The translations under genes and the position numbers were made by a program. A stretch of 64,000 bases of DNA, from positions 5,426 through 69,425 of the forward strand of contig JAKSIV010000009.1 in assembly GCA_024398635.1 (NCBI GenBank), in the 5' to 3' direction. Positions 31,078-46,589 of this stretch are shown piece by piece (positions within the stretch are counted from its first letter, which is position 1; each line of letters opens with the position of its first letter). The DNA comes from Bacteroidaceae bacterium (GTDB lineage: Bacteria > Bacteroidota > Bacteroidia > Bacteroidales > Bacteroidaceae). The notes below the pieces were generated by a model that saw only the letters and a list, made by a program, of their open reading frames with translations, had not been told where the DNA came from and did not search any database.

Positions 31078-31102
31078 TAGTACACATCTTGTATTTTTTG
31101 TC

Positions 31103-31110: not shown

Positions 31111-31134
31111 CGGCAAAACAACACTAAACAGAAA

Positions 31135-32001: not shown

Positions 32002-32022
32002 TAAACCAGTAGGCAGGCAGTC

Positions 32023-32922
32023 ATGTGGTTGGCATTCGCGCTTGTATCGGCCCTCTTTCTGGGACTGTATGACGTAGCCAAGAAGCAATCACTCAAGGAG
32101 AACGCGGTCATTCCGGTTCTCTGGTTCAACACCCTGTTCTGCTCACTCTTAATGCTGCCGTTCACGCTCCTGTCAGCCAAGACAGGACTGCTGGACGGCA
32201 GTATTTTTTATGTTCCATCAGCCGGATGGGAGCTGCATCGCCTGCTCATGCTCAAGGCGTTCATCGTGCTGGGCTCCTGGATTTTCGGCTATTTTGGCAT
32301 GAAGCATCTGCCAATCACACTGTTCGGCCCCATCAACGCCACACGGCCTATAATCGTGCTGCTGGGAGGCCTTCTTCTGTTTGGCGAGCGCCTCAACCTT
32401 TACCAGTGGATCGGTGTTATAATTGCCGTAATCTCTTTCTATCTGCTTAGTCTGAGCGGCAAGAAAGAGGGCATTACTTTCTACAAGAACAAATGGGTGT
32501 TCTGCGTTATCATGGCGACCATACTGGGAGCCATCAGCGCCCTGTTTGACAAGTATCTGCTGGGCCGATTCAACAACATGTTCGTACAGGCATGGAGCAA
32601 CTTCTACCAGCTGGCTCTCATGACTGTGATCCTATTCACCCTTTGGTGGCCTACGCGTAAGCACACCACTCCCTTCCAATGGAAGTGGCCCATCATCTTC
32701 ATCGCCGTCTTCCTCACGCTGGCTGATTACGCCTACTTTGTCTCCCTGGCATCCAGCGCCTCAATGGTGTCAATCGTATCCATGATACGCCGCTCAAGCG
32801 TCATCGTAAGCTTCCTGTGCGGCGCCATGCTCTTCCACGAGAAAAATCTACGGAGCAAAGTCATCGACCTCCTCCTGGTCCTCCTCGGCCTCTTCTTCCT
32901 GCTCATCGGCTCCCTGCAATAA
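32023..32922 (+). CDS. EamA/DMT-family transporter
   Basis: 10 TM segments and a typical EamA N-terminus, MWLAFALVSALFLGLYDVAKK. Confidence 0.8.
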   Translation: MWLAFALVSALFLGLYDVAKKQSLKENAVIPVLWFNTLFCSLLMLPFTLLSAKTGLLDGSIFYVPSAGWELHRLLMLKAFIVLGSWIFGYFGMKHLPITLFGPINATRPIIVLLGGLLLFGERLNLYQWIGVIIAVISFYLLSLSGKKEGITFYKNKWVFCVIMATILGAISALFDKYLLGRFNNMFVQAWSNFYQLALMTVILFTLWWPTRKHTTPFQWKWPIIFIAVFLTLADYAYFVSLASSASMVSIVSMIRRSSVIVSFLCGAMLFHEKNLRSKVIDLLLVLLGLFFLLIGSLQ

Positions 32923-33067: not shown

Positions 33068-34345
33068 ATGATGAAAGACATTTTTGAGAGAATCAAAGAG
33101 ACTCCGGGCCCGCTCGGACAGTATCAGGGAATCGGCGACGGTTACTTCATGTTCCCCCGCTTAGTAGGTGAAATCGGCCCCGAGATGGAGTTCAACGGCA
33201 AGCCCGTCCTCAACTGGAGCCTTAACAACTACCTGGGTCTGGCCAATCATCCCGAGGTAAGAAAGGCCGATGCCGAGGCTGCTGCAAAGTTTGGTCTTGG
33301 TGCTCCTATGGGTGCCCGCATGATGTCTGGTAATACTGATTACCATATCAAGTTTGAGAATGACTTCTCAGAGTTCGTAGGCAAGAAGGCAGGTTTGTGC
33401 CTCAACTTCGGTTATCAGGGCATGATCTCAATCATCGACGTTCTGACCAGCCGTAAGGATGTTATCGTTTACGACTCTGAGTCACACGCCTGCATCCTGG
33501 ACGGTATGCGTCTGAGCCTGGCCAAGCGTTTCGCTTTCCAGCACAACAACATGGAGAGCCTTGAGAAGCAGCTGGGTCACGCCTGCAAGCTGGCCGATGA
33601 GCAGGGCGGCGGCGTTCTGGTCATCACCGAGGGTGTATTCGGCATGGCCGGTGACCTGGGTCATCTCGCTGACATCGTAGAACTCAAGAAGAAATATCCG
33701 TTCCGCATACTTATCGACGATGCACACGGTTTCGGTACAATGGGTGCACACGGTCGCGGTACCGCCGAGCACTACGGCGTAATCGACGAGATCGATGTAA
33801 TATTCGACGCATTCGCCAAGAGTATGGCTTCAATCGGTGGTGTAGTAAGCTCAGAGCCTGAGATCATTGACCACCTCAAGTGCAACATGCGTTCACAGAT
33901 CTACGCCAAGTCACTGCCGCTGCCGCTGGTTATCGGTAACCAGAAGCGTCTGGACCTGATCAAGGCTCACCCCGAGTACCGCGAGCATCTGTGGGAGGTT
34001 GTAAACGCTCTGCAGGGCGGTCTCAAGGCCGAGGGCTTCAACATCGGCGTAACAGAGTCACCTGTAACACCCGTATTCTTTGAGGGTGGCGTGAACGAGG
34101 GCACCAACGTTGTTGTTGACCTGCGTGAGAACTACGGAATCTTCTGCTCAATCGTTACATATCCCGTTATCCCGAAGGGCCAGCTGATGCTGCGTATCAT
34201 CCCGACCGCTTCACACACTCTGGATCATGTTAAGCGTACCATCGAGGTATTCAAGGATGTCCAGAAGAAGCTCAAGGCCGGTTACTACGAGGGCCCCATC
34301 CAGGATATGAACGTATTCAAGCGTGCTCAGATAAAGAGAGGATGA
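33068..34345 (+). CDS. alpha-oxoamine synthase family PLP enzyme, probably cysteate-C-fatty-acyltransferase (CapB/SulA-like)
   Basis: The motifs NNYLGLANHPEV, LIDDAHGFGTMG and the FAKSMAS lysine are AOS-family hallmarks. The specificity is inferred from the two downstream genes. Confidence 0.75.
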   Translation: MMKDIFERIKETPGPLGQYQGIGDGYFMFPRLVGEIGPEMEFNGKPVLNWSLNNYLGLANHPEVRKADAEAAAKFGLGAPMGARMMSGNTDYHIKFENDFSEFVGKKAGLCLNFGYQGMISIIDVLTSRKDVIVYDSESHACILDGMRLSLAKRFAFQHNNMESLEKQLGHACKLADEQGGGVLVITEGVFGMAGDLGHLADIVELKKKYPFRILIDDAHGFGTMGAHGRGTAEHYGVIDEIDVIFDAFAKSMASIGGVVSSEPEIIDHLKCNMRSQIYAKSLPLPLVIGNQKRLDLIKAHPEYREHLWEVVNALQGGLKAEGFNIGVTESPVTPVFFEGGVNEGTNVVVDLRENYGIFCSIVTYPVIPKGQLMLRIIPTASHTLDHVKRTIEVFKDVQKKLKAGYYEGPIQDMNVFKRAQIKRG

Positions 34346-35565
34346 AATACCAGCTTGTCTGCAAGAAGTGCGGCAAGGTAATAGGTGACTTTGCCGCCTG
34401 GTTCAGTCAGGACCAGCTGTGTGAGTGCGGAAGCAATCACGCAGAGGTTACATACACCACAGATTACCGTCTTCTTGACGAGCTCTGCAAGCCCGGCCAG
34501 AAGGTCGATAACCTTTACCACTACCTGCCCTTCCTTCCTCTTGATGAGGCCGATGAGCAGGTAAGCTGCGGTGAAGGTGCAGTACCCATCGAGGAGTGGG
34601 AGTTCCTGAGCCGATACGCAAAGGACAACTACGGCATTGACTGCAAGGTTGTGGTGGCCCGCAATGACCTGAACGGAGGCAGCGGCACATTCAAGGACAT
34701 AGCCGCATCACTGGCAGCAACGCTGTTCAAGAAACACGGAGTCAAGGAGTATTGCCTGGCATCAACAGGTAATGCTGCAACAGCATACGCCACATACCTT
34801 GCCAAGGCAGGTGTGAAGTTTGACGTATTCGCTCCGCACGACATGCATCAGGAGACCCAGCAGGCCATCCGCGCCACCGGTCAGAACCTCCAGGTATCTG
34901 AGGGCGGTTACGGCCAGGCCAAGGCCGAGGCTGCTGATTTCCATAAGAACCAGAGCGTGATGATATCGGCCGGTAACATCGACCCCATCCGCGTAGAGGC
35001 CAAGAAGACTCTCGTCTTTGAGTGCATGCGCCAGTTGGGCCGTATCCCCGATGTCTATATGCAGGCCGTTGCAGGCGGCACAAGCCCCATCGCATTCGAG
35101 AAGGGAATGCGTGAGATAGCAAGTGCTTATCCGCAGTATAAGATGCCCCGCATGCTGCTGGTTCAGCAGGACACCTGCGATCCTATGGTACAGGCATGGG
35201 AATGGGCAATTGAGAACGAGTTCCCGCAGGGCTGGAACAAGCACTTCCCCACTGTGGTTCCGCAGACAAATATTTCCATCCTGACAGCAGGCACCCCCGG
35301 CATGTATCCGCTTGTCGGCCCCATCGTAAAGAACAGCGGTGGCTCATTCCTGCGTATCAGGGAGGAGGGTCTGGAGCGTTACGGCCGTATGGTCAAGGAC
35401 GCAACAGGCGTTTATATGGGACCCGCATCGGTGGTATGCATAGCAGGATTCTTCAAGGCACTTGAGGAGAATAAACTCAAGAGCGGCGATCTGGTTCTGC
35501 TCAACACCGGCGAGGGTTGCGAGCGCGCCCTTTGGTTTAAGAAAGCAATAGACGATTGCAAATGA
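34342..35565 (+). CDS. threonine-synthase-like PLP enzyme, probably cysteate synthase (CapA-like)
   Basis: N-terminal Zn-ribbon CKKCG...CECG and PLP-lysine motif GSGTFKDIAAS. The ATGA start overlaps the upstream stop. Confidence 0.65.
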   Translation: MKYQLVCKKCGKVIGDFAAWFSQDQLCECGSNHAEVTYTTDYRLLDELCKPGQKVDNLYHYLPFLPLDEADEQVSCGEGAVPIEEWEFLSRYAKDNYGIDCKVVVARNDLNGGSGTFKDIAASLAATLFKKHGVKEYCLASTGNAATAYATYLAKAGVKFDVFAPHDMHQETQQAIRATGQNLQVSEGGYGQAKAEAADFHKNQSVMISAGNIDPIRVEAKKTLVFECMRQLGRIPDVYMQAVAGGTSPIAFEKGMREIASAYPQYKMPRMLLVQQDTCDPMVQAWEWAIENEFPQGWNKHFPTVVPQTNISILTAGTPGMYPLVGPIVKNSGGSFLRIREEGLERYGRMVKDATGVYMGPASVVCIAGFFKALEENKLKSGDLVLLNTGEGCERALWFKKAIDDCK

Positions 35566-36362
35566 AAAAGTTTACCGACAAGGTAGTTTGGATAACAGGC
35601 TCTTCATCAGGTATAGGTGAGGCAACCGCATATGAGTTTGCACGTGAAGGCGCAAAACTCATTCTCACTGCACTTGAGGCCGATCTTCTTGAGAAGGTTG
35701 CCGCCCGTTGCATAGAGTTGGGTGCCCCCGATGCCAAGCCCCTGCCCTTTGACCTCTCCAAGAAGGATGAGGTTGCCGGGTTGGCAGAGCAGGCATGGCA
35801 GGTATTCGGCCACATAGACGTGTTCTACAACAACGCCGGCATCAGCCAGCGCGGCACCACCTGTGAGACCGAAATGCGTGTAATCAACAAGGTCATGGAC
35901 ATAAACTGGTTCGCTCCGGTAATCATGACCAAGGTGATACTGCCCAAGATGATTGAGAACGGCGGAGGCCAGCTTATGGTAACCACCAGTATCAACGGAC
36001 GGTTCGGATTCCCGCTGCGCTGCGCCTACAGTTCATCCAAGCACGCCCTGTACGGATTCTTTGAGACAGTCCAGGCAGAGTATTACAAGGATAACATCCG
36101 CGTAACCATTGTATGCCCCGGACGTGTTCAGACCCGCATATCATTCTATGCATTAGAGAAAGACGGAAAACAGCATGCCAAGATGGATGCCGGTCAGGCA
36201 GGAGGTTGCACCCCCGAGCAGGCCGCCCGCAAGATCGTCAAGGCTGTTTACCGTAAAAAGCGTGAAGTCCTTGTGGGACGCAAGGAGCTGCTGATGGTTT
36301 ACATCAGGCGTTTCCTGCCCGGACTCTGCGCCAAGATAGCCCGTTCCATTAATCCGATGTAA
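35562..36362 (+). CDS. short-chain dehydrogenase/reductase, probably 3-dehydrocapnine reductase (CapC-like)
   Basis: TGSSSGIG cofactor motif and YSSSKHAL catalytic motif. The ATG at 35562 overlaps the upstream TGA (ATGA). Confidence 0.7.
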   Translation: MKKFTDKVVWITGSSSGIGEATAYEFAREGAKLILTALEADLLEKVAARCIELGAPDAKPLPFDLSKKDEVAGLAEQAWQVFGHIDVFYNNAGISQRGTTCETEMRVINKVMDINWFAPVIMTKVILPKMIENGGGQLMVTTSINGRFGFPLRCAYSSSKHALYGFFETVQAEYYKDNIRVTIVCPGRVQTRISFYALEKDGKQHAKMDAGQAGGCTPEQAARKIVKAVYRKKREVLVGRKELLMVYIRRFLPGLCAKIARSINPM

Positions 36363-36383: not shown

Positions 36384-38165
36384 ATGAAAAAAGAGATTCA
36401 ATTCAGTCTTGTTTACCGTGACATGTGGCAGTCATCAGGCAAGTACGTACCACGCAAGGATCAGTTGGCCAAGATTGCCCCGGTAATTATTGATATGGGT
36501 TGCTTCGACCGCGTTGAGACCAACGGCGGTGCCATGGAGCAAGTCAATCTTCTGTACGGCGAGAACCCCAACCAGGCAGTCCGCACATTCACCAAGCCCT
36601 TCAACGAGGTGGGCATCAAGACCCACATGCTTGACCGTGGCCTGAACGCATTGCGCATGAACCCTGTTCCGGCCGATGTACGTCAGCTCATGTATAAGGT
36701 AAAGCACGCTCAGGGCGTTGATATAACACGTATATTCTGCGGTCTGAATGACCCGCGTAACATAATCCCCTCAATCAAGTGGGCCAAGCAGGCTGGCATG
36801 ACCGCTCAGGCAACCATGTGTATCACCTACTCCAAGGTACACAATGCCGAGTACTACATCAACCTGGCCGAGCAGCTCATCGAGGGCGGCGCACAGGAGA
36901 TCTGCCTCAAGGATATGGCCGGTATCGGCCGTCCCGCAATGCTGGGCACCATCGTTCGCGCCATCAAGGAGAAACATCCCGACATCGTCATACAGTACCA
37001 CGGCCACAACGGCCCCGGTTTCGCAGTAGCTTCAATGCTTGAGGTTGCCAAGGCCGGCGGTGACGTTCTGGACGTAGCCATGGAGCCGCTGTCATGGGGT
37101 AAGGTTCATCCGGATGTAATCACCATCCAGGCCATGCTCAAGGATGCCGGATTCCTGGTAAAGGACATCAACATGAAGGCTTACATGGAGGCTCGTTCAC
37201 TCACTCAGAGCTTCATGGACGATTTCCTGGGCTACTGGATCGACCCCAAGAACTCACTGATGAGTTCACTGCTGGTAGGTTGCGGCCTGCCCGGCGGTAT
37301 GATGGGATCACTTATGGCTGACCTTAAGGGTATGCACGCCGCCATCAACGCCAACCTCAAGAAGAAGGGTGAGAAGGAGCTGTCTGAGGACGAGCTGCTC
37401 GTTGAGCTCTTTGATGAGGTACAGCGCATATGGCCTATGCTGGGTACTCCCTGCCTGGTTACACCTTTCAGCCAGTACGTAAAGAACGCCGCTTTGATGA
37501 ACCTCTACTCCAAGTCAATGGACGAGAAGCCCTTCACCCGTATGGATCCCGCCATGTGGGGCATGGTTCTTGGTAAGTCAGGTAAACTGCCCGGCCAGCT
37601 GGCTCCCGAGATCGTTGAGATTGCCAAGGAGAAAGGCTTTGAATTCTATACCGATGATCCTCAGGTACTCTACCCCAACGAGCTCCCGCGCTTTGAGAAG
37701 GAGATGAAGGAGAACGGCTGGGACCGCGGTCAGGATGATGAGGAGCTCTTTGAGTTCGCTATGCATGAGAAGCAGTACCGCGAGTACAAGTCCGGTCAGG
37801 CCAAGGATCAGTTCAACAAGGATCTTATGGAGCGCATGGAGAAGGCTCAGGCCGGTACCGCCGGTGCACCCGTCAAGCACTTCACCGCAGCCGACAAGCG
37901 CGCCATCCTGCATCCCGATGCAGAACCCATCCAGGCAGCTGTCAGCGGCCGCGTAATCTGGGATCTGGACTACATGGATCAGTCAACCAATCCTCCCTTC
38001 GGCAAGCAGTACAAGAAGGGTGACTGGATGGTCGGTATACAGGCCAGCGGCAATAGCTTCATTGACAACGCCACCGCACCTTACGACTGCCACCTGGCAG
38101 CTGTCGAGAAGGAGCACGGCTCACTCGTAACAAAGGGTGAAGTCATCGGCTGGATAGAGAGGTGA
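36384..38165 (+). CDS. pyruvate/oxaloacetate carboxyltransferase (5S / OadA-type TIM barrel) with a degenerate C-terminal biotinyl-like domain
   Basis: The N-terminus (VYRDMWQSSGKYVPRKDQL..VETNGGA..HMLDRGLNALRM) is typical of this family. The C-terminal ~75 aa has the biotinyl-domain layout, but QASGN occupies the place of EAMKM. Confidence 0.75.
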   Translation: MKKEIQFSLVYRDMWQSSGKYVPRKDQLAKIAPVIIDMGCFDRVETNGGAMEQVNLLYGENPNQAVRTFTKPFNEVGIKTHMLDRGLNALRMNPVPADVRQLMYKVKHAQGVDITRIFCGLNDPRNIIPSIKWAKQAGMTAQATMCITYSKVHNAEYYINLAEQLIEGGAQEICLKDMAGIGRPAMLGTIVRAIKEKHPDIVIQYHGHNGPGFAVASMLEVAKAGGDVLDVAMEPLSWGKVHPDVITIQAMLKDAGFLVKDINMKAYMEARSLTQSFMDDFLGYWIDPKNSLMSSLLVGCGLPGGMMGSLMADLKGMHAAINANLKKKGEKELSEDELLVELFDEVQRIWPMLGTPCLVTPFSQYVKNAALMNLYSKSMDEKPFTRMDPAMWGMVLGKSGKLPGQLAPEIVEIAKEKGFEFYTDDPQVLYPNELPRFEKEMKENGWDRGQDDEELFEFAMHEKQYREYKSGQAKDQFNKDLMERMEKAQAGTAGAPVKHFTAADKRAILHPDAEPIQAAVSGRVIWDLDYMDQSTNPPFGKQYKKGDWMVGIQASGNSFIDNATAPYDCHLAAVEKEHGSLVTKGEVIGWIER

Positions 38166-38286
38166 CAAAGGGGACGGTTCTTTTTGGCACCTTATGATAA
38201 AAAGCGTCTGGAAATCCAGACGCTTTTTTGTTGGATAGCGAACTCATGTCAAAAGGTGCCAAAAAGAACCGTCCCCTTTGTCACCT
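38160..38286. repeat. 34-bp perfect inverted repeat (AGGTGACAAAGGGGACGGTTCTTTTTGGCACCTT) enclosing an intrinsic terminator
   Basis: Arms are 38160-38193 and 38253-38286. Each arm contains the final Arg codon and the TGA stop of one of the two convergent genes. Confidence 0.9.
38199..38229. terminator. bidirectional rho-independent terminator
   Basis: AAAAA-GCGTCTGG-AAAT-CCAGACGC-TTTTTT, located between convergent genes. Confidence 0.8.
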
Positions 38287-39063
38287 TTTCACGATGTGGA
38301 TGCTTAGCTCGTATAGGAGGTAGATAGGTAACGTGACTATAGTCAGGGTAAAGATATCTGTTGTGGGGGTAATAATAGCCGCGATAATCAGGATGACTAC
38401 TATTGCGTGACGACGGTACTTTTTCATGAAGGCCGCGTCAATAATACCCAGTTTGTGCAGGAACCATGCCAGTATGGGAAGTTCAAACAGTATACCCATC
38501 AAAAGGGTCAGTGTAATAAGCAGGTTGGTATAGGATTCCAGGGTTATTACATTGGGAATGCTTTCACTCACCTGATAGGTGCCAAGGAAGCGGAATGCCA
38601 GGGGAAATATTATAAGGTAATCAAGAATTATACCTACCATGAACAGGATGTATGACCATACAACAACACGTGTGGTACTGCGGCGTTCATTTGAGTACAG
38701 TGCCGGTCTGACAAAGCCGAAAAGCAGATAAAGCGTGTATGGCATTATCACCACCAGACTCAGATAGAACGCCATTTTCATGTGGATCATGAACTGGGCG
38801 GTAAGCGTGGTGCTGAACATATCGACGTTGAAATCGCGCAGAGCCGATGCATCAAACCCGGCCCACCCCGCTACGGCCGATATCCACCTGTAAAGAATGA
38901 AATCGGGACTACTGGGTGCAAGTATCAGTTTAAAGAGCGGTTCCTTGAAGCAGAACGCGACAATAAACCCCACCACAGCTACGGCGAGGACGCGCAGAAT
39001 GACATCCCTGAGAGCGTCCAGATGGTCCCAGAAAGTCATGGGCTTGTCTTCCGGAACAGCCAT
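38281..39063 (-). CDS. tatC: twin-arginine translocase subunit TatC
   Basis: MTFWDHLDALRDVILRVL followed by six TM segments, as is typical of TatC. Confidence 0.9.
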   Translation of the reverse strand: MAVPEDKPMTFWDHLDALRDVILRVLAVAVVGFIVAFCFKEPLFKLILAPSSPDFILYRWISAVAGWAGFDASALRDFNVDMFSTTLTAQFMIHMKMAFYLSLVVIMPYTLYLLFGFVRPALYSNERRSTTRVVVWSYILFMVGIILDYLIIFPLAFRFLGTYQVSESIPNVITLESYTNLLITLTLLMGILFELPILAWFLHKLGIIDAAFMKKYRRHAIVVILIIAAIITPTTDIFTLTIVTLPIYLLYELSIHIVKR

Positions 39064-39075
39064 AAAAGAATAGGA

Positions 39076-39300
39076 TTACTTGGATTCGGGCTCCTTATCG
39101 GTTTCCTTGGCGGCAGTCTCATCAGGAGCGTTGATCTCCTTTTCAACCTCCTTCATGCCCTCTTTGAAGCTCTTTACGCCCTTGCCCATACTCTTCATGA
39201 GTTCGGGAATACGCTTAGCTCCGAACAGAAGCAGGATAACAACGACAATAAGTATTATTTCACCGGTTCCCAGTCCCAGTATAAGCGGATAAAGTGTCAT
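39076..39300 (-). CDS. tatA: twin-arginine translocase subunit TatA/E
   Basis: 74 aa. GTGEIILIVVVILLLFGAKRIPELMKSMGKGVKSFKEG is the TatA signature. Confidence 0.85.
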   Translation of the reverse strand: MTLYPLILGLGTGEIILIVVVILLLFGAKRIPELMKSMGKGVKSFKEGMKEVEKEINAPDETAAKETDKEPESK

Positions 39301-39450: not shown

Positions 39451-40539
39451 ATGGAAAAGAATATGTACAAAGACGGTTTCTTTATAACTGGAATTCAACA
39501 GATAGGCGTGGGTACAACATCGGTTTATGATTCATGGAAATGGTTCATAAAGATGTTCGGCGTCGATATAAGAGTATTGGAAGATGACACTGTTGCAGAG
39601 CGTATGCTCCCCTACACCGGCGGTCATCCGCGCAAGCGCCACGCCGCCATTGCAGTAAGCCTGCAGGGAGGTGGCGGATTTGAGATCTGGCAGTACTCTG
39701 AGCGCAAGCCCAAACCGGTGGATTTCCAGATTCAGGTTGGTGACCTGGGCATATTCTGCGCCAAAGTTAAGTGCCGCAACACCGAGAGCGCACATAAGTA
39801 CGCATCGGAGCGTTGGGATAAGGTAAGCCCTATCGTCACCGCACCCGACGGCAGCAAGACCTTCTATATCACCGACCCTGAGGGCAACTGGTTCCAGGCC
39901 GTACAGGATGATTACCTTCTGCTGGATGAGGGCAAGGAGTTCGGCGGTATGATTGGCTGCATGATTGGCGTGACCGATATGGACAAGGCACGCACCGTCT
40001 ATTCCGATATACTGGGTTATGACCAGCTGATATATAACGAATACGGCCATTTTGATGACCTCAAGCCTCTGGCAGGCGGTGACGGAGAGTTCCGTCGCGT
40101 GTTGCTCAAGTGGTCAAAGCCTAACAAGGGCGCCTTTTCATCCATATTCCCCTCCGGTTACATAGAGCTGGTACAGTGCCGTGACCGCGAGCCCCGCAAG
40201 ATTTTCGAGGGACGTTATTGGGGAGATCCCGGATTCATACAGATTTGCTTTGACGTAACCGGAATGGACGAACTGGGCAAGTGGTGCGCCGATCACGGAC
40301 ATCCCTTCACGGTTGACAGCTGCCCCGACGGCAAGCAGTTTGCCATGGGTGACGCATCGGGCCGATTCACATACATAGAGGATCAGGACGGCACTCTGAT
40401 TGAGTTTGTGGAGACCTACCGCATATCGGTAGCCAAGAAGCTGGGCTGGTATATCAACCTGCTTTACCGTAACCGCGAGAAGCCGCTTTCAAAGCTGCTC
40501 TTCCGTGCCATGAAAATGAACCGCAAGAAGTTTGACTGA
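39451..40539 (+). CDS. VOC-superfamily (glyoxalase/dioxygenase fold) protein, two tandem modules
   Basis: ITGIQQIGVGTTSVYDSWKWFIKMFG, and a second module GCMIGVTDMDKARTVYSDILGY. The track start at 39433 is TTG, so the first ATG is used. Confidence 0.65.
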   Translation: MEKNMYKDGFFITGIQQIGVGTTSVYDSWKWFIKMFGVDIRVLEDDTVAERMLPYTGGHPRKRHAAIAVSLQGGGGFEIWQYSERKPKPVDFQIQVGDLGIFCAKVKCRNTESAHKYASERWDKVSPIVTAPDGSKTFYITDPEGNWFQAVQDDYLLLDEGKEFGGMIGCMIGVTDMDKARTVYSDILGYDQLIYNEYGHFDDLKPLAGGDGEFRRVLLKWSKPNKGAFSSIFPSGYIELVQCRDREPRKIFEGRYWGDPGFIQICFDVTGMDELGKWCADHGHPFTVDSCPDGKQFAMGDASGRFTYIEDQDGTLIEFVETYRISVAKKLGWYINLLYRNREKPLSKLLFRAMKMNRKKFD

Positions 40540-40553
40540 TCAACTATCCGCTT

Positions 40554-41171
40554 ATGGGAAATCTCATTGATCTTATCAAGTCCGACGTCCGTTACGAGGA
40601 CTCGCTCAAGGCATGCATGAACTGCGGAATCTGTACCGCAATATGCCCGGCGGCCGAGTTCTACGACTATGACCCCCGCCGCATCTGCGATACTGTGCAG
40701 CGCGGTGATGAGGAGCAGGTAGAAAAGCTTCTGCGTTCGGACACAATCTGGTACTGCGGACAATGCATGTCATGCAAGCCCCGTTGCCCGCGCGGCAATA
40801 TTCCCGGAGCCGTAATCAACATACTGCGTAAGGTTTCCCAGGATATGGGATACTATAAGGATAGTCACATGGGCCGCCAGCAGGTTGAGTTGATGGAAGG
40901 CATCGGCAACAACATTCTGGAGATAGGTTATTGCGTACATCCCGATAAGGTCCTGCCTGAAAGACATCCCGAGCAGGGACCTGTCTGGGAGTGGTATGTA
41001 AAGAATATCAAGACCGTTTCGCCCAAGTTCGGAGCCAACTATCACGGCGAGGGTGCCGGTGCATTGCGTACCATCACACCTGAGACCATGGAAGAACTTC
41101 GCAACATATTCCGCGTAACCGGAGGCATGGGTTTCCATGACACGATTTTAAACGGCCCGCACGATGAATAA
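40554..41171 (+). CDS. HdrC-like 2x[4Fe-4S] ferredoxin-domain protein
   Basis: CMNCGICTAICP and CGQCMSCKPRCP, with the long inter-cluster spacer typical of HdrC/SdhB-like proteins. Confidence 0.75.
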   Translation: MGNLIDLIKSDVRYEDSLKACMNCGICTAICPAAEFYDYDPRRICDTVQRGDEEQVEKLLRSDTIWYCGQCMSCKPRCPRGNIPGAVINILRKVSQDMGYYKDSHMGRQQVELMEGIGNNILEIGYCVHPDKVLPERHPEQGPVWEWYVKNIKTVSPKFGANYHGEGAGALRTITPETMEELRNIFRVTGGMGFHDTILNGPHDE

Positions 41172-41496
41172 ATTCGGTTTCGCCATAAAGACTCCCCGAT
41201 CGGAGGATATGGACAAGGTATCGCTTGAGCGGTACAACATGCTGCTTGACCGCGTCCCTTCGTTCAAGCGCTGTTTCCAGTGCGGGTGCTGCAGTGCCAC
41301 CTGTTCGGCACGTCAGTATACCGAGTTCAGCATCCGCCGCATTCACACCTCGTTCCGTCGCGGTGAATATGAAGGGCTTGACGAGCAGCTCAAAAAGTGC
41401 ATGCTCTGCGGTAAATGCACCTTGGTTTGCCCGCGTGGGGTAAACCTGCGTTCACTGATTATCAATATGCGTCAGATCCTTGACGAAACAAAATAA
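41164..41496 (+). CDS. second small HdrC-like 2x[4Fe-4S] protein
   Basis: CFQCGCCSATCS and CMLCGKCTLVCP. Its start overlaps the upstream gene by 8 nt. Confidence 0.7.
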   Translation: MNKFGFAIKTPRSEDMDKVSLERYNMLLDRVPSFKRCFQCGCCSATCSARQYTEFSIRRIHTSFRRGEYEGLDEQLKKCMLCGKCTLVCPRGVNLRSLIINMRQILDETK

Positions 41497-41502
41497 GCCG
41501 CC

Positions 41503-43458
41503 ATGAAGATACACGCATATCCATATAATGATTTTGTGATACCGTTCCTGATTGGAACTATCCTGCTGTTCTCAATCATTATATACAAATACATACGCTG
41601 GATAAGACGTTTCAGCGACGAGCAGCGTAAGGTAATCCGCAGCAACTGGTATTCATGGAAGATATTCCCCGCTATATGGGAGATGATACGTGAAGGCCTC
41701 CTGCACGTGCGTATTCTAAAGGAAAACCTGCTTCTGGGCATAATGCACCAGGCATATGCCTTAGGCTGGTTCCTGCTCATATTGGTAGGTGCAATTGAGA
41801 GCCGTGACGCCTTCTTTACACTGCAGCACGAGCAGTCAATTGAGACGGTACGTGAACTCGATGCACAGAACGGCTGGTATATATACAATACCGGCGAGAA
41901 TAAGGACCCCGAGTATCTCAATCAGCGCCGTTATCGTGTTGAGACCGAGGACGGAATAGCCCGTATCCACTACCACCGTCCCTTCTATGTAGGTATATTC
42001 TACCGCTACTTTGTACATAAGGCACCGGCAGCGTTCCATCAACATAAGGCATATTCAGACCTGATGGACGCATTGCTGCTCTACGTGTTCTTAGGTCTCA
42101 CAATGGCCATCATAAAGATATTCTGGTCCAAGATACTGGGAATGCGCCGCACCACCAAGCATACCATTGTAGACCGATTCTCAAAGTTCTCACTTTGGAT
42201 GATATTCCCGTTACGTCTGCTGGCCGAGTCTGTCACAGCCTGTCTTTACGGCAACGGCGGATTCTTTACCCAGGCGGTGGGTAACCTGTTCGACCCTATG
42301 ATTGTACGCGGCCTGGAGACATCGGTATGGATGCTCTATTCCCTTATGCTGGGCGTATTCTTTGTGACCATGCCGTTCACCCGCTACATGCATATCTTCA
42401 CCGAGCTACTGCTCATATACTTCCGTAAGATCGGAGTCCGTGAAGAGACCGGCAAGACAGGCTATACCCTATTTGAGCTGAATGCCTGCTCACGTTGCGG
42501 CGTCTGCATATCGGGCTGTCCCATTGACCGGGTGCTTGAGAACCACGAGATACAGTCCGTCTATCTGATACGCAGCCTGCGTAACCAGGAGCGCGGAAGC
42601 CGTCTTAAGATGATTGCCGACAACTGTCTTATGTGTGACCGATGCACGGTCGATTGTCCCGTAGGCATTGACCTGAGCGCCCTACGCCGTCAAACCAGAG
42701 CCAAAGGCGCCATCGACACTGTTGGCAATTATTCATATCTGAACAAGCGACAGTCACCGTTCAACGCCATAGGACGTGTAGCTTACTTTGGAGGTTGTAT
42801 GTCTCATCTTACCCCTGGCATCACCGAGTCAATGGAGAAGATATTCACTGCAGCCGGTCAGAAGTACTGGTACATGGACAAGTTGGGAACCATATGCTGC
42901 GGACGTCCTTTGCAGCAGCAGGGATTCACCAATCAGGCAGCCGAACTGCGAAAGAAGAATACCGATCTGATAGAGAAATCAGGCTCAACCATGTTGGTAA
43001 CCTCCTGCCCAATCTGCTATCAGTCATTCAAGAAGGAGTACAATCTGAACATACCGGTAGTTCATCACACAGAGTATATCGATATGCTCATCAAGCAGGG
43101 ATGTCTTAAGGTGCGTCACGATGACCGCAAGGTATCATATCATGATCCGTGCGAGCTGGGTCGCGGATGCGGAATCTACGAAGAACCACGCCAGGTTCTC
43201 AGTGCCGTAACCAACTTGCAAAAGACCCGTTACCAAAGAGAAAAGAGTGTGTGCTGCGGATTCAACCTGGGAGACACCAAACTCAGCCTTGAGGAGCAGA
43301 CCAAGATAAGGAACGCATCACTTGCCAACCTGACAAGCAAGCCGGTTGATGCAATCGCAACCGCCTGCCCCATGTGTAAGAAGGCGTTCCAGCATGCCAC
43401 CAACGACTATCCTGTAAAGGACATAGCCGAGATTGTGGCAGAGAACCTTATAAACTGA
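41503..43458 (+). CDS. membrane-anchored Fe-S / CCG-domain protein (HdrE/DsrM-like N-terminus fused to an HdrD/DsrK/GlpC-like C-terminus)
   Basis: About 5 TM segments with conserved His residues (GIMHQAYALGWF, TRYMHIFTELL). Then CSRCGVCISGCP and CLMCDRCTVDCP. Then two CCG motifs (ICCGRP..CPIC and CCGFNLG..CPMC). Confidence 0.75.
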   Translation: MKIHAYPYNDFVIPFLIGTILLFSIIIYKYIRWIRRFSDEQRKVIRSNWYSWKIFPAIWEMIREGLLHVRILKENLLLGIMHQAYALGWFLLILVGAIESRDAFFTLQHEQSIETVRELDAQNGWYIYNTGENKDPEYLNQRRYRVETEDGIARIHYHRPFYVGIFYRYFVHKAPAAFHQHKAYSDLMDALLLYVFLGLTMAIIKIFWSKILGMRRTTKHTIVDRFSKFSLWMIFPLRLLAESVTACLYGNGGFFTQAVGNLFDPMIVRGLETSVWMLYSLMLGVFFVTMPFTRYMHIFTELLLIYFRKIGVREETGKTGYTLFELNACSRCGVCISGCPIDRVLENHEIQSVYLIRSLRNQERGSRLKMIADNCLMCDRCTVDCPVGIDLSALRRQTRAKGAIDTVGNYSYLNKRQSPFNAIGRVAYFGGCMSHLTPGITESMEKIFTAAGQKYWYMDKLGTICCGRPLQQQGFTNQAAELRKKNTDLIEKSGSTMLVTSCPICYQSFKKEYNLNIPVVHHTEYIDMLIKQGCLKVRHDDRKVSYHDPCELGRGCGIYEEPRQVLSAVTNLQKTRYQREKSVCCGFNLGDTKLSLEEQTKIRNASLANLTSKPVDAIATACPMCKKAFQHATNDYPVKDIAEIVAENLIN

Positions 43459-43465
43459 TAAGATT

Positions 43466-44518
43466 ATGAACCGTTTTTGGAACGAATATCAGAAAGCTAT
43501 AGCTGATGACCATTTCTTCTACGAGCGCAGCTGCATCCGCCAGACCTTTTTCCCGGGCTCTGAGACTGCTTTCCTGCGTATGCTCCGCGAAGAACTGAAC
43601 AAGGATATCTTTGACGATTTCCGTCAGCACACCTGCACCGGTATAGGTTTTCACTGCGATATAGTACCGCTCGAAACCACAATGACCGTAGTGGCCCGTC
43701 TGTTCTCACTCATGACCGAGCACGGCTATGAGAACTACGTTCCCTCATGCGTAACGTCATTCGGCGTCTTTACCGAAATGGTACATATGTGGGAGGAGCA
43801 TCCCGAACTTCTTGAGAAGACCCGTGAAAACCTCTACAAGGCCTGCAAGCGCGAGTTCAACATACCCAAGAACATAGCCCACCCGTCGGACGTGATTTAT
43901 CATTTCCGTAACGAATTGGCCGAAAAGATGAAATACCGCCTGGTAAACCGCTTTACCGGAAAGCCGCTCAAGGTTGTGGAGCACATAGGTTGCCACTATG
44001 CCAAGATATTTCCCGACAAGGGCGTTGGTAAGGCAGAGTTCCCCTACGTTCTGGCAGGCATGATAGAGTCCTGGGGTGGCGAGGTTGTCGATTACCCCGA
44101 GCGCCGTCACTGCTGCGGATTCGGATTCCGCCAGTATCTGGTTCAGGAGAACCGCGGATACTCCGTATCCAACACCAAGAAGAAACTTGAGTCAATGGAG
44201 CCCTACGAGCCCGATTTCATAGTATCCAACTGTCCCGGCTGTTCCATGTTCCTGGACCGCTGGCAGTATACCATCGCCGAGATGGAGCACAAGACCTATG
44301 ACCGTGAGGGTTACGGCATTCCCGTCCTGACCTATGAGGAAATGGCCGGTCTGCTCCTTGGATATGACCCATGGGAACTTGGACTCCAGATTCATCAGGT
44401 ACAATCAGAGCGCCTGCTTGACAAGATAGGCATACCGTATGACCCCAAGGCCAAATACAGAACAGCCGACGGCAAGATACTGCGTGCCCCCGAAAAACCC
44501 GAAAACCTGTTAGTGTAA
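43466..44518 (+). CDS. HdrB-like CCG-domain protein
   Basis: HCCGFGFRQ and NCPGC in the C-terminal half, about 300 aa of HdrB-like layout, and no TM segment. Confidence 0.7.
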   Translation: MNRFWNEYQKAIADDHFFYERSCIRQTFFPGSETAFLRMLREELNKDIFDDFRQHTCTGIGFHCDIVPLETTMTVVARLFSLMTEHGYENYVPSCVTSFGVFTEMVHMWEEHPELLEKTRENLYKACKREFNIPKNIAHPSDVIYHFRNELAEKMKYRLVNRFTGKPLKVVEHIGCHYAKIFPDKGVGKAEFPYVLAGMIESWGGEVVDYPERRHCCGFGFRQYLVQENRGYSVSNTKKKLESMEPYEPDFIVSNCPGCSMFLDRWQYTIAEMEHKTYDREGYGIPVLTYEEMAGLLLGYDPWELGLQIHQVQSERLLDKIGIPYDPKAKYRTADGKILRAPEKPENLLV

Positions 44519-44525
44519 ACCGCTT

Positions 44526-45548
44526 ATGAGAAAAGTCGCAATAATAGGAGCCGGCCCCGCCGGTATAGAGGCCGCATCAACACTGGCCAAGAACGGTATT
44601 GAGGTCACTCTGTTTGAAAAGTCAGAGACTCCGCTCAAGAACATACAGGACAAGGCTTTCCTGTTCCCCAATTTCCAGGCAGCCCAGGAGATTGCCGATG
44701 ATCTGAGCGGCAAGCTGCTCACCGACGGCATCACTACCGCTTTCGGAGTTGACATAGCCGACATCAAATGGCAGGGCACCGAGTGGAAACTCATAGATGC
44801 CAAGAACCAGACCTATGTGGCCGATGCAGTTCTCGTTGCCACCGGCTATCAGGTATTTGATGCCCACCGCAAGGAAGAACTGGGTTACGGTATCTACAAA
44901 GGCGTAATCACATCACTCGATATGGAGCAGATGATCAAACACGGCAAGATCCTGAATGCCAACGGCGATGAGCCCAAGCGCGTTACATTCCTGCAGTGCG
45001 TAGGCTCACGTGACGAGAAGAGCGGCAACCACTACTGCTCCAAGATTTGCTGCGTTACAGCCGTAAAGCAGGCTATCGAGGTACGCAAGCAACTGCCAAA
45101 GTGTGAAGCATCGATATTCTACATGGACCTGCGTATGTGGGGCCAGGGATTCGAGGAGATGTACCGCACCGCCCAGGAGAAATACGGTGTAAGCTTCGTT
45201 CGCGGACGTATATCGGAGGCTGCTGCCACATTCGACGGCCGTGTACAGCTTAAGAGTGAGGATACCCTGATGGGACTGCCACTCAAGATGACTACCGACC
45301 TTCTGGTACTTATGGTAGGTATGGAGGCCTCATGCGGCACCAAGGAGCTTGGCAAGGCTTGCGACATAAGCGGTGACTACGGCTTTATCAAGTCCGTAAA
45401 TCCCCACCTCTACGACAATGAGACCGGCAAGCCCGGACTCTTTGTGGCAGGCACCTGCAAGCGTCCCATGAGCGTATCGGACTCCATCAACGATGCCCGC
45501 TCTGCCGCCATAGCGATCAAGGACTACCTTGACACCCTACCTCAATAA
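44526..45548 (+). CDS. HdrA-like FAD-dependent oxidoreductase (core domain only)
   Basis: Dinucleotide fold VAIIGAGPAGIEAA. The signature FLQCVGSRDEKSGNHYCSKICC matches the HdrA-type CxGSRD...C..CC cluster. Confidence 0.75.
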   Translation: MRKVAIIGAGPAGIEAASTLAKNGIEVTLFEKSETPLKNIQDKAFLFPNFQAAQEIADDLSGKLLTDGITTAFGVDIADIKWQGTEWKLIDAKNQTYVADAVLVATGYQVFDAHRKEELGYGIYKGVITSLDMEQMIKHGKILNANGDEPKRVTFLQCVGSRDEKSGNHYCSKICCVTAVKQAIEVRKQLPKCEASIFYMDLRMWGQGFEEMYRTAQEKYGVSFVRGRISEAAATFDGRVQLKSEDTLMGLPLKMTTDLLVLMVGMEASCGTKELGKACDISGDYGFIKSVNPHLYDNETGKPGLFVAGTCKRPMSVSDSINDARSAAIAIKDYLDTLPQ

Positions 45549-45552: not shown

Positions 45553-45589
45553 AAAAAAATGACCGCTCGATTGAGCGGTCATTTTTTTT
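45553..45589. terminator. bidirectional rho-independent terminator
   Basis: AAAAAAA-TGACCGCTC-GATT-GAGCGGTCA-TTTTTTTT, between convergent gene ends. Confidence 0.85.
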
Positions 45590-46589
45590 ATTTAAAACCT
45601 GTCTGTGCCCAGGGGATCCACTTCTGGACTTCTTTGTCGGCGAGAGTCTCGTCAACATGCATGATGATGGTGTTGGCATCCTCCTTGCCAAGCAGGAACT
45701 TGTCTATGAATGCCTCAACCTCGGGATACTGGCTCTGGGGAAGTTGGCAGTGACCATGCTTGCCCTGGATTGAGAATCCCATACGGTCCTCGATTCCGAA
45801 CTTCTTCCATACCTCACGTGCAGCTACGCATGATACGTAACCGGCCTCATCGGCCAGCCACTCATAATCGGTGTTACCCAATACCAGCAGGACACGCGGG
45901 CAAACCAGGGCGCAGAGCTCGTGGTGGTCATACGGAAGCTTTGATACGTTGGCATCCTTCCAATCCCACATTGACTCCTTGAACCAGTGAGGATCAGTGT
46001 TACCCAAGGTCTCTACATGACCCAGAGTCTCGGATACGCGCCATGCAGCAGCACCGCCGCCAAAGCCGCCCATCTGTGAGTAGCTGTTAACCTGACGCTC
46101 GTTGAAATTCATCTGAGCAATCTTACGATCAGTAAAGAACTGACGCGGCAGAGCGTTGTTTGATGCACCGATCATGAGAGGGAACGGACCGTCACCCTCG
46201 GGGTAAGTAATTCTGGCTGAAAGCTCAAGAGTCTCACCGTTACGTGTAACCTTGACTGTCAGTGTATTGTTCTCAAGAGTTGCCTCGATGTCCTCCTTGC
46301 CTATAATAGGCTTCTCACCTATTTCATAGTGCTGGAGCTCGCGTACGATCTCTGCACGACGCTTCTCCCAATCCTTGAACTTCCTGACCTGCTTGGTGCT
46401 GTTTGAGAACTCAAACGGGTTAGGCAGAGTCTCCAGACTCTTTGCCTCATCTACTGTGGGGAATGCGGGAGCGGGATACTTTGCACCTGCAAATTCCTGG
46501 TCATAAACCAGAGGAATGGACTATCGAGCCATTGCCGGAATTACAGCCAAAGCTGCAGCGGCAGCAAAAAATAATTTGATTCTCTTCAT
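45588..46589 (-). pseudogene. decayed CE15 glucuronoyl-esterase gene (in-frame TAG at codon 23, and the nucleophile motif is missing)
   Basis: The ATG at 46589 gives MKRIKLFFAAAAALAVIPAMAR, then a TAG (46521-46523), and then the same frame stays open to 45588. CE15 hallmarks are present: LPNPFEFSNSTKQVRKFKDWEKRRAEI, YDHHELCALVCPR, HGHCQLP. There is no GCSRxG serine motif, and the region where it belongs is about 70 aa too short. Confidence 0.65.

Follow-up and report, generated by a model that had tools for sequence, protein, structure and literature searches.

A membrane-anchored heterodisulfide-reductase-like gene set in conserved synteny with sulfonolipid genes in Bacteroidales

The window analysed here is a 64,000-nucleotide stretch from an uncultured rumen Bacteroidaceae bacterium (assembly GCA_024398635.1, contig JAKSIV010000009.1, positions 5,426 to 69,425). 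It contains six co-directional genes, denoted g1–g6, that encode a protein of the VOC superfamily and five subunits resembling those of heterodisulfide reductase (Hdr), one of them a membrane protein. In related genomes, the Hdr-like genes recur beside the genes for sulfonolipid (capnine) synthesis, and this conserved, rearranged synteny is the best-supported clue to their function, suggesting that the Hdr complex is coupled to synthesis of the lipid. We tentatively propose, with somewhat less than even confidence, that the complex oxidises reduced sulfur to sulfite, delivers the electrons to menaquinone, and thereby feeds cysteate synthase with sulfite. A first-pass annotation of the same DNA had described a membrane-anchored Hdr-like complex with a VOC-fold first gene in a Bacteroidales-type genome, with which our domain searches agree. 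It had regarded a link to the sulfonolipid genes as conceivable but unsupported, a judgement that the repeatedly rearranged synteny reverses. The genes and the hairpin that closes them are as follows:

39463-40539, + strand: g1, VOC protein, 358 aa (in-frame alternative starts at 39451 and 39433)
40554-41171, + strand: g2, HdrC1-like, 205 aa
41164-41496, + strand: g3, HdrC2-like, 110 aa
41503-43458, + strand: g4, membrane subunit, 651 aa
43466-44518, + strand: g5, HdrB1-like, 350 aa
44526-45548, + strand: g6, short HdrA-like, 340 aa
45553-45588, no strand assigned: hairpin closing the operon, resembling a bidirectional intrinsic terminator (16-bp stem with 6 GC pairs, an A run on one side and a T run on the other)

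The open reading frame (ORF) listing reproduced the tight packing that had been noted before, with intergenic spacings of 14, −8, 6, 7 and 7 nt from g1 to g6. The ATG at 39463 was chosen as the start of g1 on the agreement of the gene caller with the homologue alignment. An identical six-gene arrangement was present in contigs of independent metagenome assemblies, where g1 was called from the matching ATG. The strong bidirectional terminator claimed to follow g6 was found as the hairpin at 45553-45588, by far the strongest terminator-like site of the region; over the whole region, such sites were not in excess (8 observed against 7.3 expected from shuffles). From the spacing and the hairpin, g1–g6 are predicted to form one operon. 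Its GC content equals that of the window (0.517 against 0.513), so there is no sign of recent acquisition. The sole match to the Bacteroidetes −7 motif TAnnTTTG upstream of g1, TACATTTG at 39331, lies on the minus strand and would serve tatA.

The sulfonolipid genes lie upstream of the operon in the window:

33068-34345, + strand: cysteate-C-fatty acyltransferase (CFAT; SulA/CapB orthologue), matching PDB 7U7H at 608 bits and 28EH at 543 bits
34342-35565, + strand: pyridoxal phosphate (PLP) enzyme, presumed cysteate synthase, family PALP; overlaps both neighbouring genes
35556-36362, + strand: short-chain dehydrogenase/reductase (SDR), presumed 3-ketocapnine (dehydrocapnine) reductase, family adh_short

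The window thus has all three members of the capnine/sulfobacin gene set (cysteate synthase-like, CFAT and KCR-like). The pathway starts from L-phosphoserine via cysteate (PMC11211663). The CFAT reaction is its first committed step, and the SDR is of the kind that reduces 3-ketocapnine (PMC11211663). Serine palmitoyltransferase matched the window CFAT at 252 bits, compared to 608 bits for SulA (7U7H), and the protein fell below the cut-off of the CFB SPT model. By these scores it is a clear orthologue of Alistipes finegoldii SulA, distinct from serine palmitoyltransferase, and we therefore regard the sulfonolipid pathway as real here. The PLP enzyme keeps the PLP lysine and matched PRK08197 (149 bits) and the cysteate synthase model TIGR03844 (104 bits), both below cut-off; it is 22% identical to bona fide cysteate synthase from archaea, the archaeal enzyme being the only comparator. 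Cysteate synthase (EC 2.5.1.76) forms cysteate from O-phosphoserine and sulfite, according to Graham et al. 2009 as listed in PMC12068725.

We mapped the window proteins by tblastn onto 79 related loci, clustered all ORFs of these loci (within 10 kb) without bias, and grouped the g4 homologues into 22 lineages (clusters at 70% identity). Loci are given L-numbers below, and AOS, PALP and SDR are the family labels for CFAT, the PLP enzyme and the ketocapnine reductase-like protein. The five Hdr-like genes, the VOC gene and the sulfonolipid genes travel together: g4 is present in 77 loci, g3 in 64, g5 in 58, g6 in 56, g2 in 55, VOC in 42, and AOS, PALP and SDR in 28 each. The next families, TatC (20 loci) and a carboxylase-like protein (15 loci), are both confined to the window's own clades, and the clustering of the 79 loci yielded no further family widely conserved across lineages. 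In about 12 of the 22 g4 lineages, the Hdr-like genes form a contiguous stretch on one strand with CFAT, the PLP enzyme, SDR and VOC; at least six gene orders occur, among lineages whose g4 proteins are only 43–55% identical.

Four of these arrangements are AOS-PALP-SDR-VOC-g2-g3-g4-g5-g6 (L035, L036, L041, L155, L163, L167, L169), AOS-PALP-g2-g5-g6-g3-g4-SDR-VOC (L052, L065, L066), g2-g5-g6-g3-g4-AOS-PALP-SDR-VOC (L069, L074, L076, L082, and L067 with VOC inverted) and AOS-PALP-SDR-g2-g3-g4-g5-g6 without VOC (L045, L143). Added to these are the window-type order, with the carboxylase-like gene and tatCA between the sulfonolipid and Hdr genes, and an inverted type (L012, L014, L017, L018, L020). 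The gaps at the junctions are often 0–100 nt (for example in L045, L052, L065, L066 and L069), and g4 abuts SDR in L065 and L066; co-transcription is therefore likely in such loci. Outside the window's own genome, SDR lies directly upstream of VOC, the two being adjacent in L035, L036, L041, L042, L052, L059, L065, L066, L069, L074, L076, L082, L155, L163, L167, L169 and L170.

A reverse test started from the PLP enzyme, an alignment of which was used to scan metagenomes. Among 29 PLP-centred loci with at least 8 kb on both sides, Hdr-like genes were found in 10, VOC in 11, CFAT in 16 and SDR in 18. The Hdr-like genes thus reach about 60% of the frequency of the canonical pathway genes, which argues that they belong to the neighbourhood of the PLP enzyme. 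Our literature searches found no paper joining "sulfonolipid" with "heterodisulfide reductase", and none combining cysteate synthase, capnine and sulfite. The papers on the sulfonolipid pathway that we searched list cysteate synthase, CFAT/SulA/CapB, KCR/CapC and an N-acyltransferase; they contain no Hdr-like or VOC genes and no origin for the sulfite.

Through Pfam and PDB matches, profile searches upheld the CCG, Fer4 dicluster, HdrA and VOC assignments made earlier, and every cysteine motif that had been quoted is kept across 55–73 homologues. Matches to curated Hdr equivalog models were all far below cut-off. In g4, Pfam detected two CCG domains and Fer4_8. The AlphaFold2 model (pLDDT 83.5) has five transmembrane (TM) helices (residues 10–35, 76–110, 181–211, 222–249 and 272–310), and four histidines are conserved (H68, H82 and H297 at 100%, H220 at 92%). 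Eight cysteines provide for two cubane [4Fe-4S] sites, and both CCG motifs are complete (C432/C465C466/C502/C505 and C550/C584C585/C622/C625), with residues that are 97–100% conserved. Over its whole length, the model matched M. smegmatis EtfD (9OJN) in Foldseek, with a query TM-score of 0.70 and E of 1e-17. From the helix boundaries of the model, the four conserved histidines seem to face the cytoplasmic side, which would point to a proximal haem only. We propose that g4 is a NarI/HdrE-type haem-b membrane domain fused to an HdrB2/HdrD-like part, exchanging electrons with menaquinone. The coupling to the quinone pool that the first-pass annotation had suggested for this gene thus gains from the fold likeness.

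EtfD is a menaquinone reductase of solved structure (PMC13083937). In EtfD, as in the EMO protein of Syntrophus, a NarI-like domain with haem b, a pair of cubane clusters and a pair of clusters in CCG domains form a wire to menaquinone, in which the distal cluster is degenerate and non-catalytic (PMC13083937; bioRxiv 10.64898/2026.08.18.745454). The architecture of g4 is the same as in 9OJN and in the protein from Syntrophus aciditrophicus: one polypeptide comprises a NarI-like domain of 5 TM helices, both cubane clusters and both CCG domains. In EtfD/EMO, however, the distal cluster is shielded and lacks one cysteine ([3Fe-4S] or [4Fe-5S]), whereas g4 keeps all ten. Moreover, EtfD and EMO receive electrons from EtfAB, usually encoded nearby, whereas g4 has no Etf partner and is always accompanied by g3. 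No member of the ETF family was found in the window or among the conserved neighbours of the 79 loci. An insertion of about 50 aa in g4 (approximately residues 103–157; 41809-41973), predicted to form a periplasmic loop after TM2 and showing short β strands in the model, is limited to the window's clade (homologues of at least 59% identity) and absent from the 590–605-aa forms.

Of the other Hdr-like subunits, g2, g5 and g6 are proposed to be cytoplasmic. Fer4_8 diclusters were detected in both g2 and g3. HdrC models cover residues 3–160 of g2, below cut-off, and PDB HdrC chains matched it at E of about 1e-11; all eight cysteines of its two [4Fe-4S] motifs are 100% conserved, and C45, C127 and H138 are conserved as well. 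In g3, the HdrC match is partial, and the eight cysteines of its two [4Fe-4S] sites are invariant. This subunit is always encoded directly upstream of g4, and the pair occurs in 64 of the 79 loci, including loci without g2, g5 and g6. The QmoC model reaches 48 bits in g2 and 29 bits in g3, compared to a cut-off of 300, and in both it covers no more than the dicluster part.

The description of g5 as an HdrB-like CCG protein stands as to family, with the correction that only the C-terminal CCG motif (C176, C216C217, C256, C259) is complete; the N-terminal site keeps three of five cysteines (C23, C57, C95), and H55 and H63 are conserved. The HdrB model matched nearly the full length (residues 18–320), below cut-off (equivalog 144 bits against 450), and PDB methanogen HdrB matched at E of 7e-30. 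Of the six proteins, g5 is the most conserved, with 51% of alignment columns at least 95% identical compared to 24–37% in the others, and we propose it as the catalytic subunit. Residues 1–331 of g6 align with residues 1–336 of sHdrA from Hyphomicrobium denitrificans, a protein of 349 aa (6TJR, E 5.9e-51). With the HdrA chains of methanogens, the alignment is mainly limited to residues 100–331 of g6, the N-terminal FAD motif giving only weak, separate matches, and HdrA models scored 179–233 bits against cut-offs of 1100–1400. The ferredoxin and MvhD-type domains of methanogen HdrA are absent, and the cluster cysteines C158, C171, C175 and C176 form an invariant [4Fe-4S] motif.

The g5 family is narrow: a HMMER search of 1.84 billion representatives gave 768 matches at E<1e-3 and 56 at E<1e-30. 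One relative with all five orthologues is an Altiarchaeales locus arranged as C1-(NifX-like)-B1-short A-(ferredoxin)-C2-630-aa TM/dicluster/CCG protein. Identities are 46–49% for g5, 43% for g2, 44% for g6, 36% for g3 and 32% for g4; the g4 match is full length and includes the PFTRYMHI helix, and the neighbours are BchN/BchB-like nitrogenase-family genes, not lipid genes. We know of no archaea with a sulfonolipid of the capnine type, and the presence of the five-gene module there points to small-molecule or inorganic chemistry rather than lipid tailoring. In this locus (L083, WOR_SM1, MCBE01000066.1, 6393-17685), the gene between C1 and B1 is NifX/MrpORP-like, a small ferredoxin follows A, a second HdrC-HdrB pair lies upstream, and the BchN/BchB-like pair is directly downstream on the opposite strand.

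A high-GC metagenome contig carries a 46% g5 homologue in the order [NarI/HdrE-like TM + HdrC fusion]-HdrB-short HdrA, followed by a gene for sulfide:quinone reductase (SQR). This SQR, two genes from the HdrB homologue, is bona fide, matching Aquifex SQR (3HYV) over its full length at E of 1e-77. A 37% relative of g5 belongs to a soluble C1-B1-short A-C2-B2 cluster, the layout of the type I sulfur-oxidising Hdr-like (sHdr) system, and the other relatives at 33–37% are ordinary methanogen HdrB beside a long HdrA.

The type I sHdr genes are ordered shdrC1B1AHC2B2, and sHdr oxidises sulfane sulfur to sulfite (PMC11094781). With type I sHdr of H. denitrificans and Aquifex aeolicus, the system described here shares the subunits C1, B1, short A, C2 and B2. 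It also shares the short HdrA (≈340 aa, FAD and one [4Fe-4S]), g6 matching 6TJR end to end; g6 is the one subunit covered by our identity comparison with sulfur oxidisers. One B subunit has two classical CCG motifs (here g4) and another is non-classical (here g5), and the proposed chemistry, sulfane sulfur to sulfite, is carried over by analogy. The gene order agrees in part: many related loci read g2-g5-g6-g3-g4, or C1-B1-A-C2-B2 (L052, L056, L065-L067, L069, L071, L073-L078, L082, L159-L161, L168); in the window it is permuted to C1-C2-B2-B1-A, without an H gene. There are also clear differences: B2 is here fused to a 5-TM haem-type domain and its own dicluster, sHdrH is missing, no LbpA, lipoate-assembly or TusA/DsrE/Rhd genes occur in the neighbourhoods searched, a VOC gene is attached, and the hosts are strictly anaerobic fermenters with a biosynthetic linkage rather than sulfur lithotrophs. 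Type II sHdr (shdrC1B1AHB3-etfAB-emo) has a comparable route through an EMO-type membrane protein to menaquinone (proposed in PMC11094781), but depends on EtfAB and HdrB3, which are absent here, while the EMO-like g4 itself seems to stand in for B2 and has complete CCG motifs.

Other known systems share parts of this anatomy. HdrDE of Methanosarcina, a catalytic disulfide reductase linked to a quinone-like membrane carrier, matches the domain content of g4, with the cytochrome b of HdrE and the dicluster and two complete CCG domains of HdrD. It differs in having two subunits, methanophenazine and CoM-S-S-CoB (CoM and CoB, coenzymes M and B, are lacking in Bacteroidales) and no HdrA/B/C partners. 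Methanogenic HdrABC has homologous A, B and C subunits, which give the best PDB matches of g2, g5 and the g6 core, but g6 lacks the N-terminal, inserted and C-terminal ferredoxin domains of HdrA. A genuine methanogen HdrABC was rejected, as g6 has 340 aa compared to ≈650 aa, the N-terminal CCG motif of g5 is incomplete, and neither the Mvh, Fdh and Elp partner modules nor CoM/CoB metabolism is represented in the window or the 79 loci. QmoABC of sulfate reducers and some sulfur oxidisers likewise comprises two HdrA-like flavoproteins and a membrane subunit with HdrC-like and HdrE-like parts, and is quinone-linked and engaged in sulfite/APS chemistry; we rejected it since CCG subunits, which Qmo does not possess, are present here, and its partner AprAB is absent. 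Hydroxyacid oxidases of the LutABC, GlcDEF or GlpABC type were set aside, since LUD/DUF162, FAD_binding_4 and GlpA/B are absent and matches to the GlcF, GlpC and LdhH models are restricted to the CCG region of g4, with scores far under the cut-offs. The same applies to type E succinate:quinone reductase, for which there is no SdhA/B partner and only the CCG and dicluster parts match, again far below cut-offs. The components are thus of known kinds, and their combination was not found described in the literature that we searched: an sHdr-type set with an EtfD/EMO/HdrDE-like B2, no LbpA, a VOC gene and a sulfonolipid cluster, in strict anaerobes. Bacteroidota are not mentioned in the survey of sHdr distribution that we consulted.

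In the mechanism that we tentatively favour, the cytoplasmic catalytic module would consist of g2 (HdrC1-like), g5 (HdrB1-like) and g6 (short HdrA-like), with g3 serving as a small ferredoxin. Reduced sulfur, as sulfide-derived sulfane sulfur or a persulfide, would be oxidised to sulfite at the non-cubane clusters of g5, as proposed for sHdr. Electrons would run through g2, g6 and g3 into g4, which would hand them to the menaquinone pool and so to fumarate reductase, while the adjacent cysteate synthase would combine the sulfite with O-phosphoserine to make cysteate for the acyltransferase. The substrate, the direction of electron flow and the formation of a complex are inferences. The C1-B1-A-C2-B2 order, the short sHdrA architecture of g6 and the soluble cluster of the 37% relative argue for an sHdr-like system, and the continuation of the 46% g5 homologue's cluster into an SQR gene favours sulfur oxidation. 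Sulfite is the proposed product because it is the only precursor of the pathway without an obvious source, scans of the 64-kb window having revealed no sulfate-assimilation gene and none being conserved near the genes in the 79 loci; in sulfide-rich, sulfate-poor anaerobic habitats, it would be the one missing input to the sulfonolipid. The relevant potentials are approximately −116 mV for HSO3−/HS−, −74 mV for menaquinone and +30 mV for fumarate/succinate, so the oxidation would be feasible if cysteate synthase removed the sulfite and fumarate pulled the quinol pool. Our confidence is slightly lower still in the wider reading, in which this is a dedicated menaquinone-linked Hdr-type enzyme of strictly anaerobic Bacteroidia, and possibly some archaea, that makes anabolic sulfite for cysteate and sulfonolipids without LbpA, the VOC protein perhaps handling the sulfur.

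Several observations weigh against the sulfite proposal. LbpA, lipoate-assembly genes, TusA, DsrE3 and rhodanese have been described as always accompanying sHdr (PMC11094781). In our searches, LbpA, lipoate-assembly genes, TusA, DsrE and rhodanese were absent from the 64-kb window and not conserved within 10 kb in the 79 loci. Pfam scans of almost all window ORFs of at least 150 aa likewise revealed no mvh/frh, flx, dsrAB, aprAB, lbpA, tusA, dsrE or rhodanese, agreeing with the earlier statement that mvh/frh, flx, dsrAB, aprAB and lbpA are not in the window, and the intergenic ORFs of 55–150 aa included none of LbpA, TusA, DsrE, rhodanese, sulfate-assimilation or other usual partners. The nearest relatives of g5 outside the group are archaeal HdrB (Altiarchaeales, Methanomassiliicoccales, Methanosphaera), not an identified sulfur-oxidiser sHdrB1, and g4 has two CCG motifs of the catalytic type with all ten cysteines retained, as is characteristic of true disulfide reductases (HdrB/HdrD). 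Assignment of the PLP enzyme to threonine-synthase/cysteate-synthase goes no further than the family level, and a large PLP clade at 61–64% identity (L113-L141) has no Hdr-like gene within 10 kb. Some genomes have only g3-g4, or VOC-g2-g3-g4, and in the window itself, a distance of 3.1 kb that includes tatAC divides the sulfonolipid and Hdr sets into separate transcription units. The proposal also leaves the role of the VOC protein unaccounted for, and all members of the system are known here from genes, models and synteny.

The VOC protein, g1, matched Glyoxalase and Glyoxalase_4 of Pfam in its C-terminal half and no NCBIfam model. Its AlphaFold model (pLDDT 89.6, pTM 0.90) has a four-module, two-domain VOC fold, and by this model g1 is a member of the VOC superfamily with paired β-α-β-β-β modules. 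The best Foldseek matches (1ZSW, GLOD4, PcpA and maize GlxI) reached a TM-score of only ≈0.55 at 12–14% identity, and with no NCBIfam match, g1 constitutes a new subfamily. Gln, Glu and Cys predominate among its invariant residues (Q12, Q13, E74, E235, Q260, C262, E314, E317), with one nearly invariant histidine (H60), and the C-terminus forms a basic amphipathic helix (344–353). The gene, present in 42 of the 79 loci, accompanies the sulfonolipid SDR gene about as often as it accompanies the Hdr genes: it occurs with AOS-PALP-SDR alone in L153 (4158-8530) and with the Hdr genes alone in L025-L034. In L153 and in L170 (1097-4200, VOC after PALP-SDR), the available 4–5 kb flanks contain no Hdr-like gene, so that the protein may be part of the lipid pathway instead of the Hdr complex. 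Presentation or processing of the sulfur substrate is one possible role; another is action on a lipid intermediate (3-ketocapnine) alongside the SDR.

The same genes can be read in the opposite redox direction, as a true disulfide or S-sulfonate reductase in which menaquinol or a donor on the g6 side would reduce a heterodisulfide, persulfide or S-sulfonate. Its substrate could for example be S-sulfocysteine or a thiosulfate-derived adduct of a low-molecular-weight thiol that the VOC enzyme would also use, in the manner of glyoxalase I or FosB; the first-pass annotation had already raised such a thiol as a possibility. The link to the sulfonolipid would then consist in thiol-dependent release of sulfite from thiosulfate or S-sulfocysteine, or in recycling of a pathway thiol. 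Synteny with the cysteate genes fits this scheme equally well, as do the archaeal HdrB relatives of g5 and the two complete CCG motifs of g4, which are like those of catalytic HdrB and HdrD, whereas the distal site of the EtfD/EMO wires is degenerate. Some VOC enzymes depend on thiols, and the conserved Gln and Glu residues of g1 resemble the Zn site of glyoxalase I. We nevertheless consider this direction unlikely: menaquinol (≈−74 mV) is a poor donor to ordinary disulfides unless proton-motive force or confurcation drives the reaction, and the known bifurcating mechanism requires ferredoxin-binding domains that are missing from the short HdrA. In addition, no thiol-biosynthesis genes co-vary with the cluster in the 79 loci, and oxidation is suggested by the SQR gene in the neighbourhood of a close homologue of g5.

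Oxidation could also serve another purpose, namely sulfide detoxification or extra energy in sulfide-rich guts and sediments, with cysteate synthase using the sulfite opportunistically or sharing a sulfur regulon. The five-gene module exists without sulfonolipid genes in Altiarchaeales and many Bacteroidales loci, and one relative adjoins SQR; moreover, isolates from the sulfidic Black Sea, including anaerobic Bacteroidota, are reported in a preprint to have complete "HDR" sets, for which sulfide detoxification was suggested (10.1101/2023.09.28.559987). This purpose is improbable, as the repeated tight, operon-like joining to biosynthetic genes (0–100 nt, in several independent orders) exceeds what a regulon would need, and no Soe, Sor, Apr/Sat or TauE is conserved nearby in the 79 loci to dispose of toxic sulfite. 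A shade less probable again is an electron-collecting EMO/EtfD-like module for redox chemistry on the lipid itself, without sulfur redox, for example to desaturate or hydroxylate capnine or its acyl chain anaerobically, or for a step shared with the VOC protein. It would explain why the VOC gene adjoins the 3-ketocapnine SDR in many orders and why the VOC protein has a basic amphipathic C-terminal helix, suggestive of a membrane-peripheral location; EtfD, the fold of which g4 shares, serves lipid β-oxidation (PMC13083937). The same module, however, occurs in Altiarchaeales, which are not known to have such a lipid, and in a relative beside SQR, and the 79 loci have no EtfAB or acyl-CoA dehydrogenase nearby. 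To our knowledge, no C–C or C–H chemistry is known for HdrA/B/C-type proteins. The known sulfobacin pathway, furthermore, needs no further redox step (PMC11211663). Least probable, and very unlikely, is that there is no functional link, and that an independent respiratory or redox module came to lie near the lipid genes by a historical accident inherited within Bacteroidales. The separate transcription units in the window, with tatAC and the carboxylase-like gene between them, and the 19 of 29 PLP-centred loci without nearby Hdr genes would fit such an accident, but the linkage outlasts at least six rearrangements and a divergence of g4 to only 43–55% identity, and no other neighbour is conserved.

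The g4 homologues are annotated merely as "(Fe-S)-binding protein" in metagenome-assembled genomes (MAGs) of Bacteroidaceae and Bacteroidales. A scan of one genome per GTDB species found a relative in at least 591 genomes. The best 80 belong without exception to uncultured Bacteroidia, sampled from rumen, gut, digesters and sediments; MAGs of Paludibacteraceae, Lentimicrobiaceae, Marinilabiliales and Tannerella are among them. Our homologue searches for named cultured carriers returned only uncultured Bacteroidales and Salinivirgaceae; a preprint hints at carriers among Lentimicrobiales, Ancylomarina, Labilibaculum and Lutibacter isolates, unconfirmed here (10.1101/2023.09.28.559987). Reduced sets (g3-g4 only, or VOC-g2-g3-g4), without g5 and g6 within 10 kb, were seen in L051, L054, L055, L057, L058, L060, L061, L070, L079 and L080, and L032, L043, L046 and L047 belong to the same class. 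In these genomes, the membrane module g3-g4 may have different partners, or g5 and g6 are perhaps encoded elsewhere. The g3-g4-only loci offered no alternative partner, as their neighbours looked unrelated on inspection of the sequences (TamB-like, AI-2E-type permease, Kbl, PpiD-like, GdhA, PepD).

If the sulfite proposal is right, the Hdr-like complex would be an upstream, redox-coupled and potentially rate-limiting step of sulfonolipid production. The sulfonolipids that Alistipes, Odoribacter and related gut Bacteroidia make have immunological activity, and a connection with inflammatory bowel disease has been reported (PMC11525784). Chemistry of the sHdr type, so far a matter of lithotrophic energy metabolism, would be extended by the complex to biosynthesis in fermenters, as the first biosynthetic (non-dissimilatory) system of this type, and the complex would add a third sHdr architecture, with a membrane-anchored B2 and no LbpA, and a candidate source of sulfite for sulfonate cofactors and lipids in sulfide-dependent anaerobes. 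It could also provide a lead on the sulfite supply for archaeal coenzyme M synthesis, although HdrB near cysteate synthase and comA/comDE may only reflect the CoM-S-S-CoB reductase. Archaeal HdrB genes (33–37% identity to g5) adjoin coenzyme M genes in L087 (3851-5104), L089 (2121-8855) and L173 (5088-6136), the neighbours being cysteate synthase (TIGR03844, 559 bits), the coenzyme M synthase MMP16 (methanogenesis marker 16), comA, comB and comDE. We did not count these loci as support, since methanogen Hdr acts on CoM-S-S-CoB. In M. acetivorans, hdrABC is reported to be up-regulated on coenzyme M starvation (PMC12068725). Should the sulfite idea prove wrong, the module would still be a widespread, uncharacterised complex of the respiratory type: it is known from at least 591 species-level genomes and from thousands of metagenome proteins, spans two domains of life and can be tested directly thanks to its gene neighbourhood.

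Upstream of the sulfonolipid genes, 28695-32922 (+ strand) encodes a 366-aa protein, a cytosine/purine-type permease, a DUF3078 protein and an EamA (DMT) transporter. These genes stay with the sulfonolipid genes in the close relatives L091, L093, L096, L099, L101, L105, L110 and L150, and an EamA homologue at 50% identity lies near the cluster in the distant locus L082; the EamA protein could be a transporter of a sulfonate or a precursor. Downstream, after the SDR gene, 36384-38165 (+ strand) encodes the 593-aa carboxyltransferase-like protein, with HMGL-like and PYC_OADA domains and similarity to OadA/PycB below cut-offs. It is 95–99% identical among relatives in which the neighbouring genes are 85–95% identical, and by eye its C-terminal barrel-like segment has no lysine where one would be expected. 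As a candidate LbpA-like carrier it was rejected, since no biotinyl or lipoyl domain was detected and its linkage is limited to close relatives.

Between this gene and the operon lie tatC (38281-39063) and tatA (39076-39300), both on the minus strand and divergent from g1, an adjacency that recurs in 20 of the 79 loci, within the window's own clades. We judged it incidental, because tatA/tatC are conserved upstream only in those clades and the six proteins have no twin-arginine motif. On the other side, a 195-aa ORF (45588-46175, − strand) is convergent with the operon and shares its bidirectional terminator; it matches only the C-terminal part (134–231) of a glucuronyl esterase family, and may be a truncated gene or have a mis-called start. 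Farther away, 58350-60092 (− strand) encodes what looks like a pair: a GGGtGRT-family protein (PF14057, E 1e-188) and, after it, a protein of 233 aa that resembles NifU_N weakly. A further thiol/quinone link in the window is a 378-aa protein (23529-24665, + strand) with an N-terminal VKOR domain, a family of quinone-linked thiol oxidoreductases.

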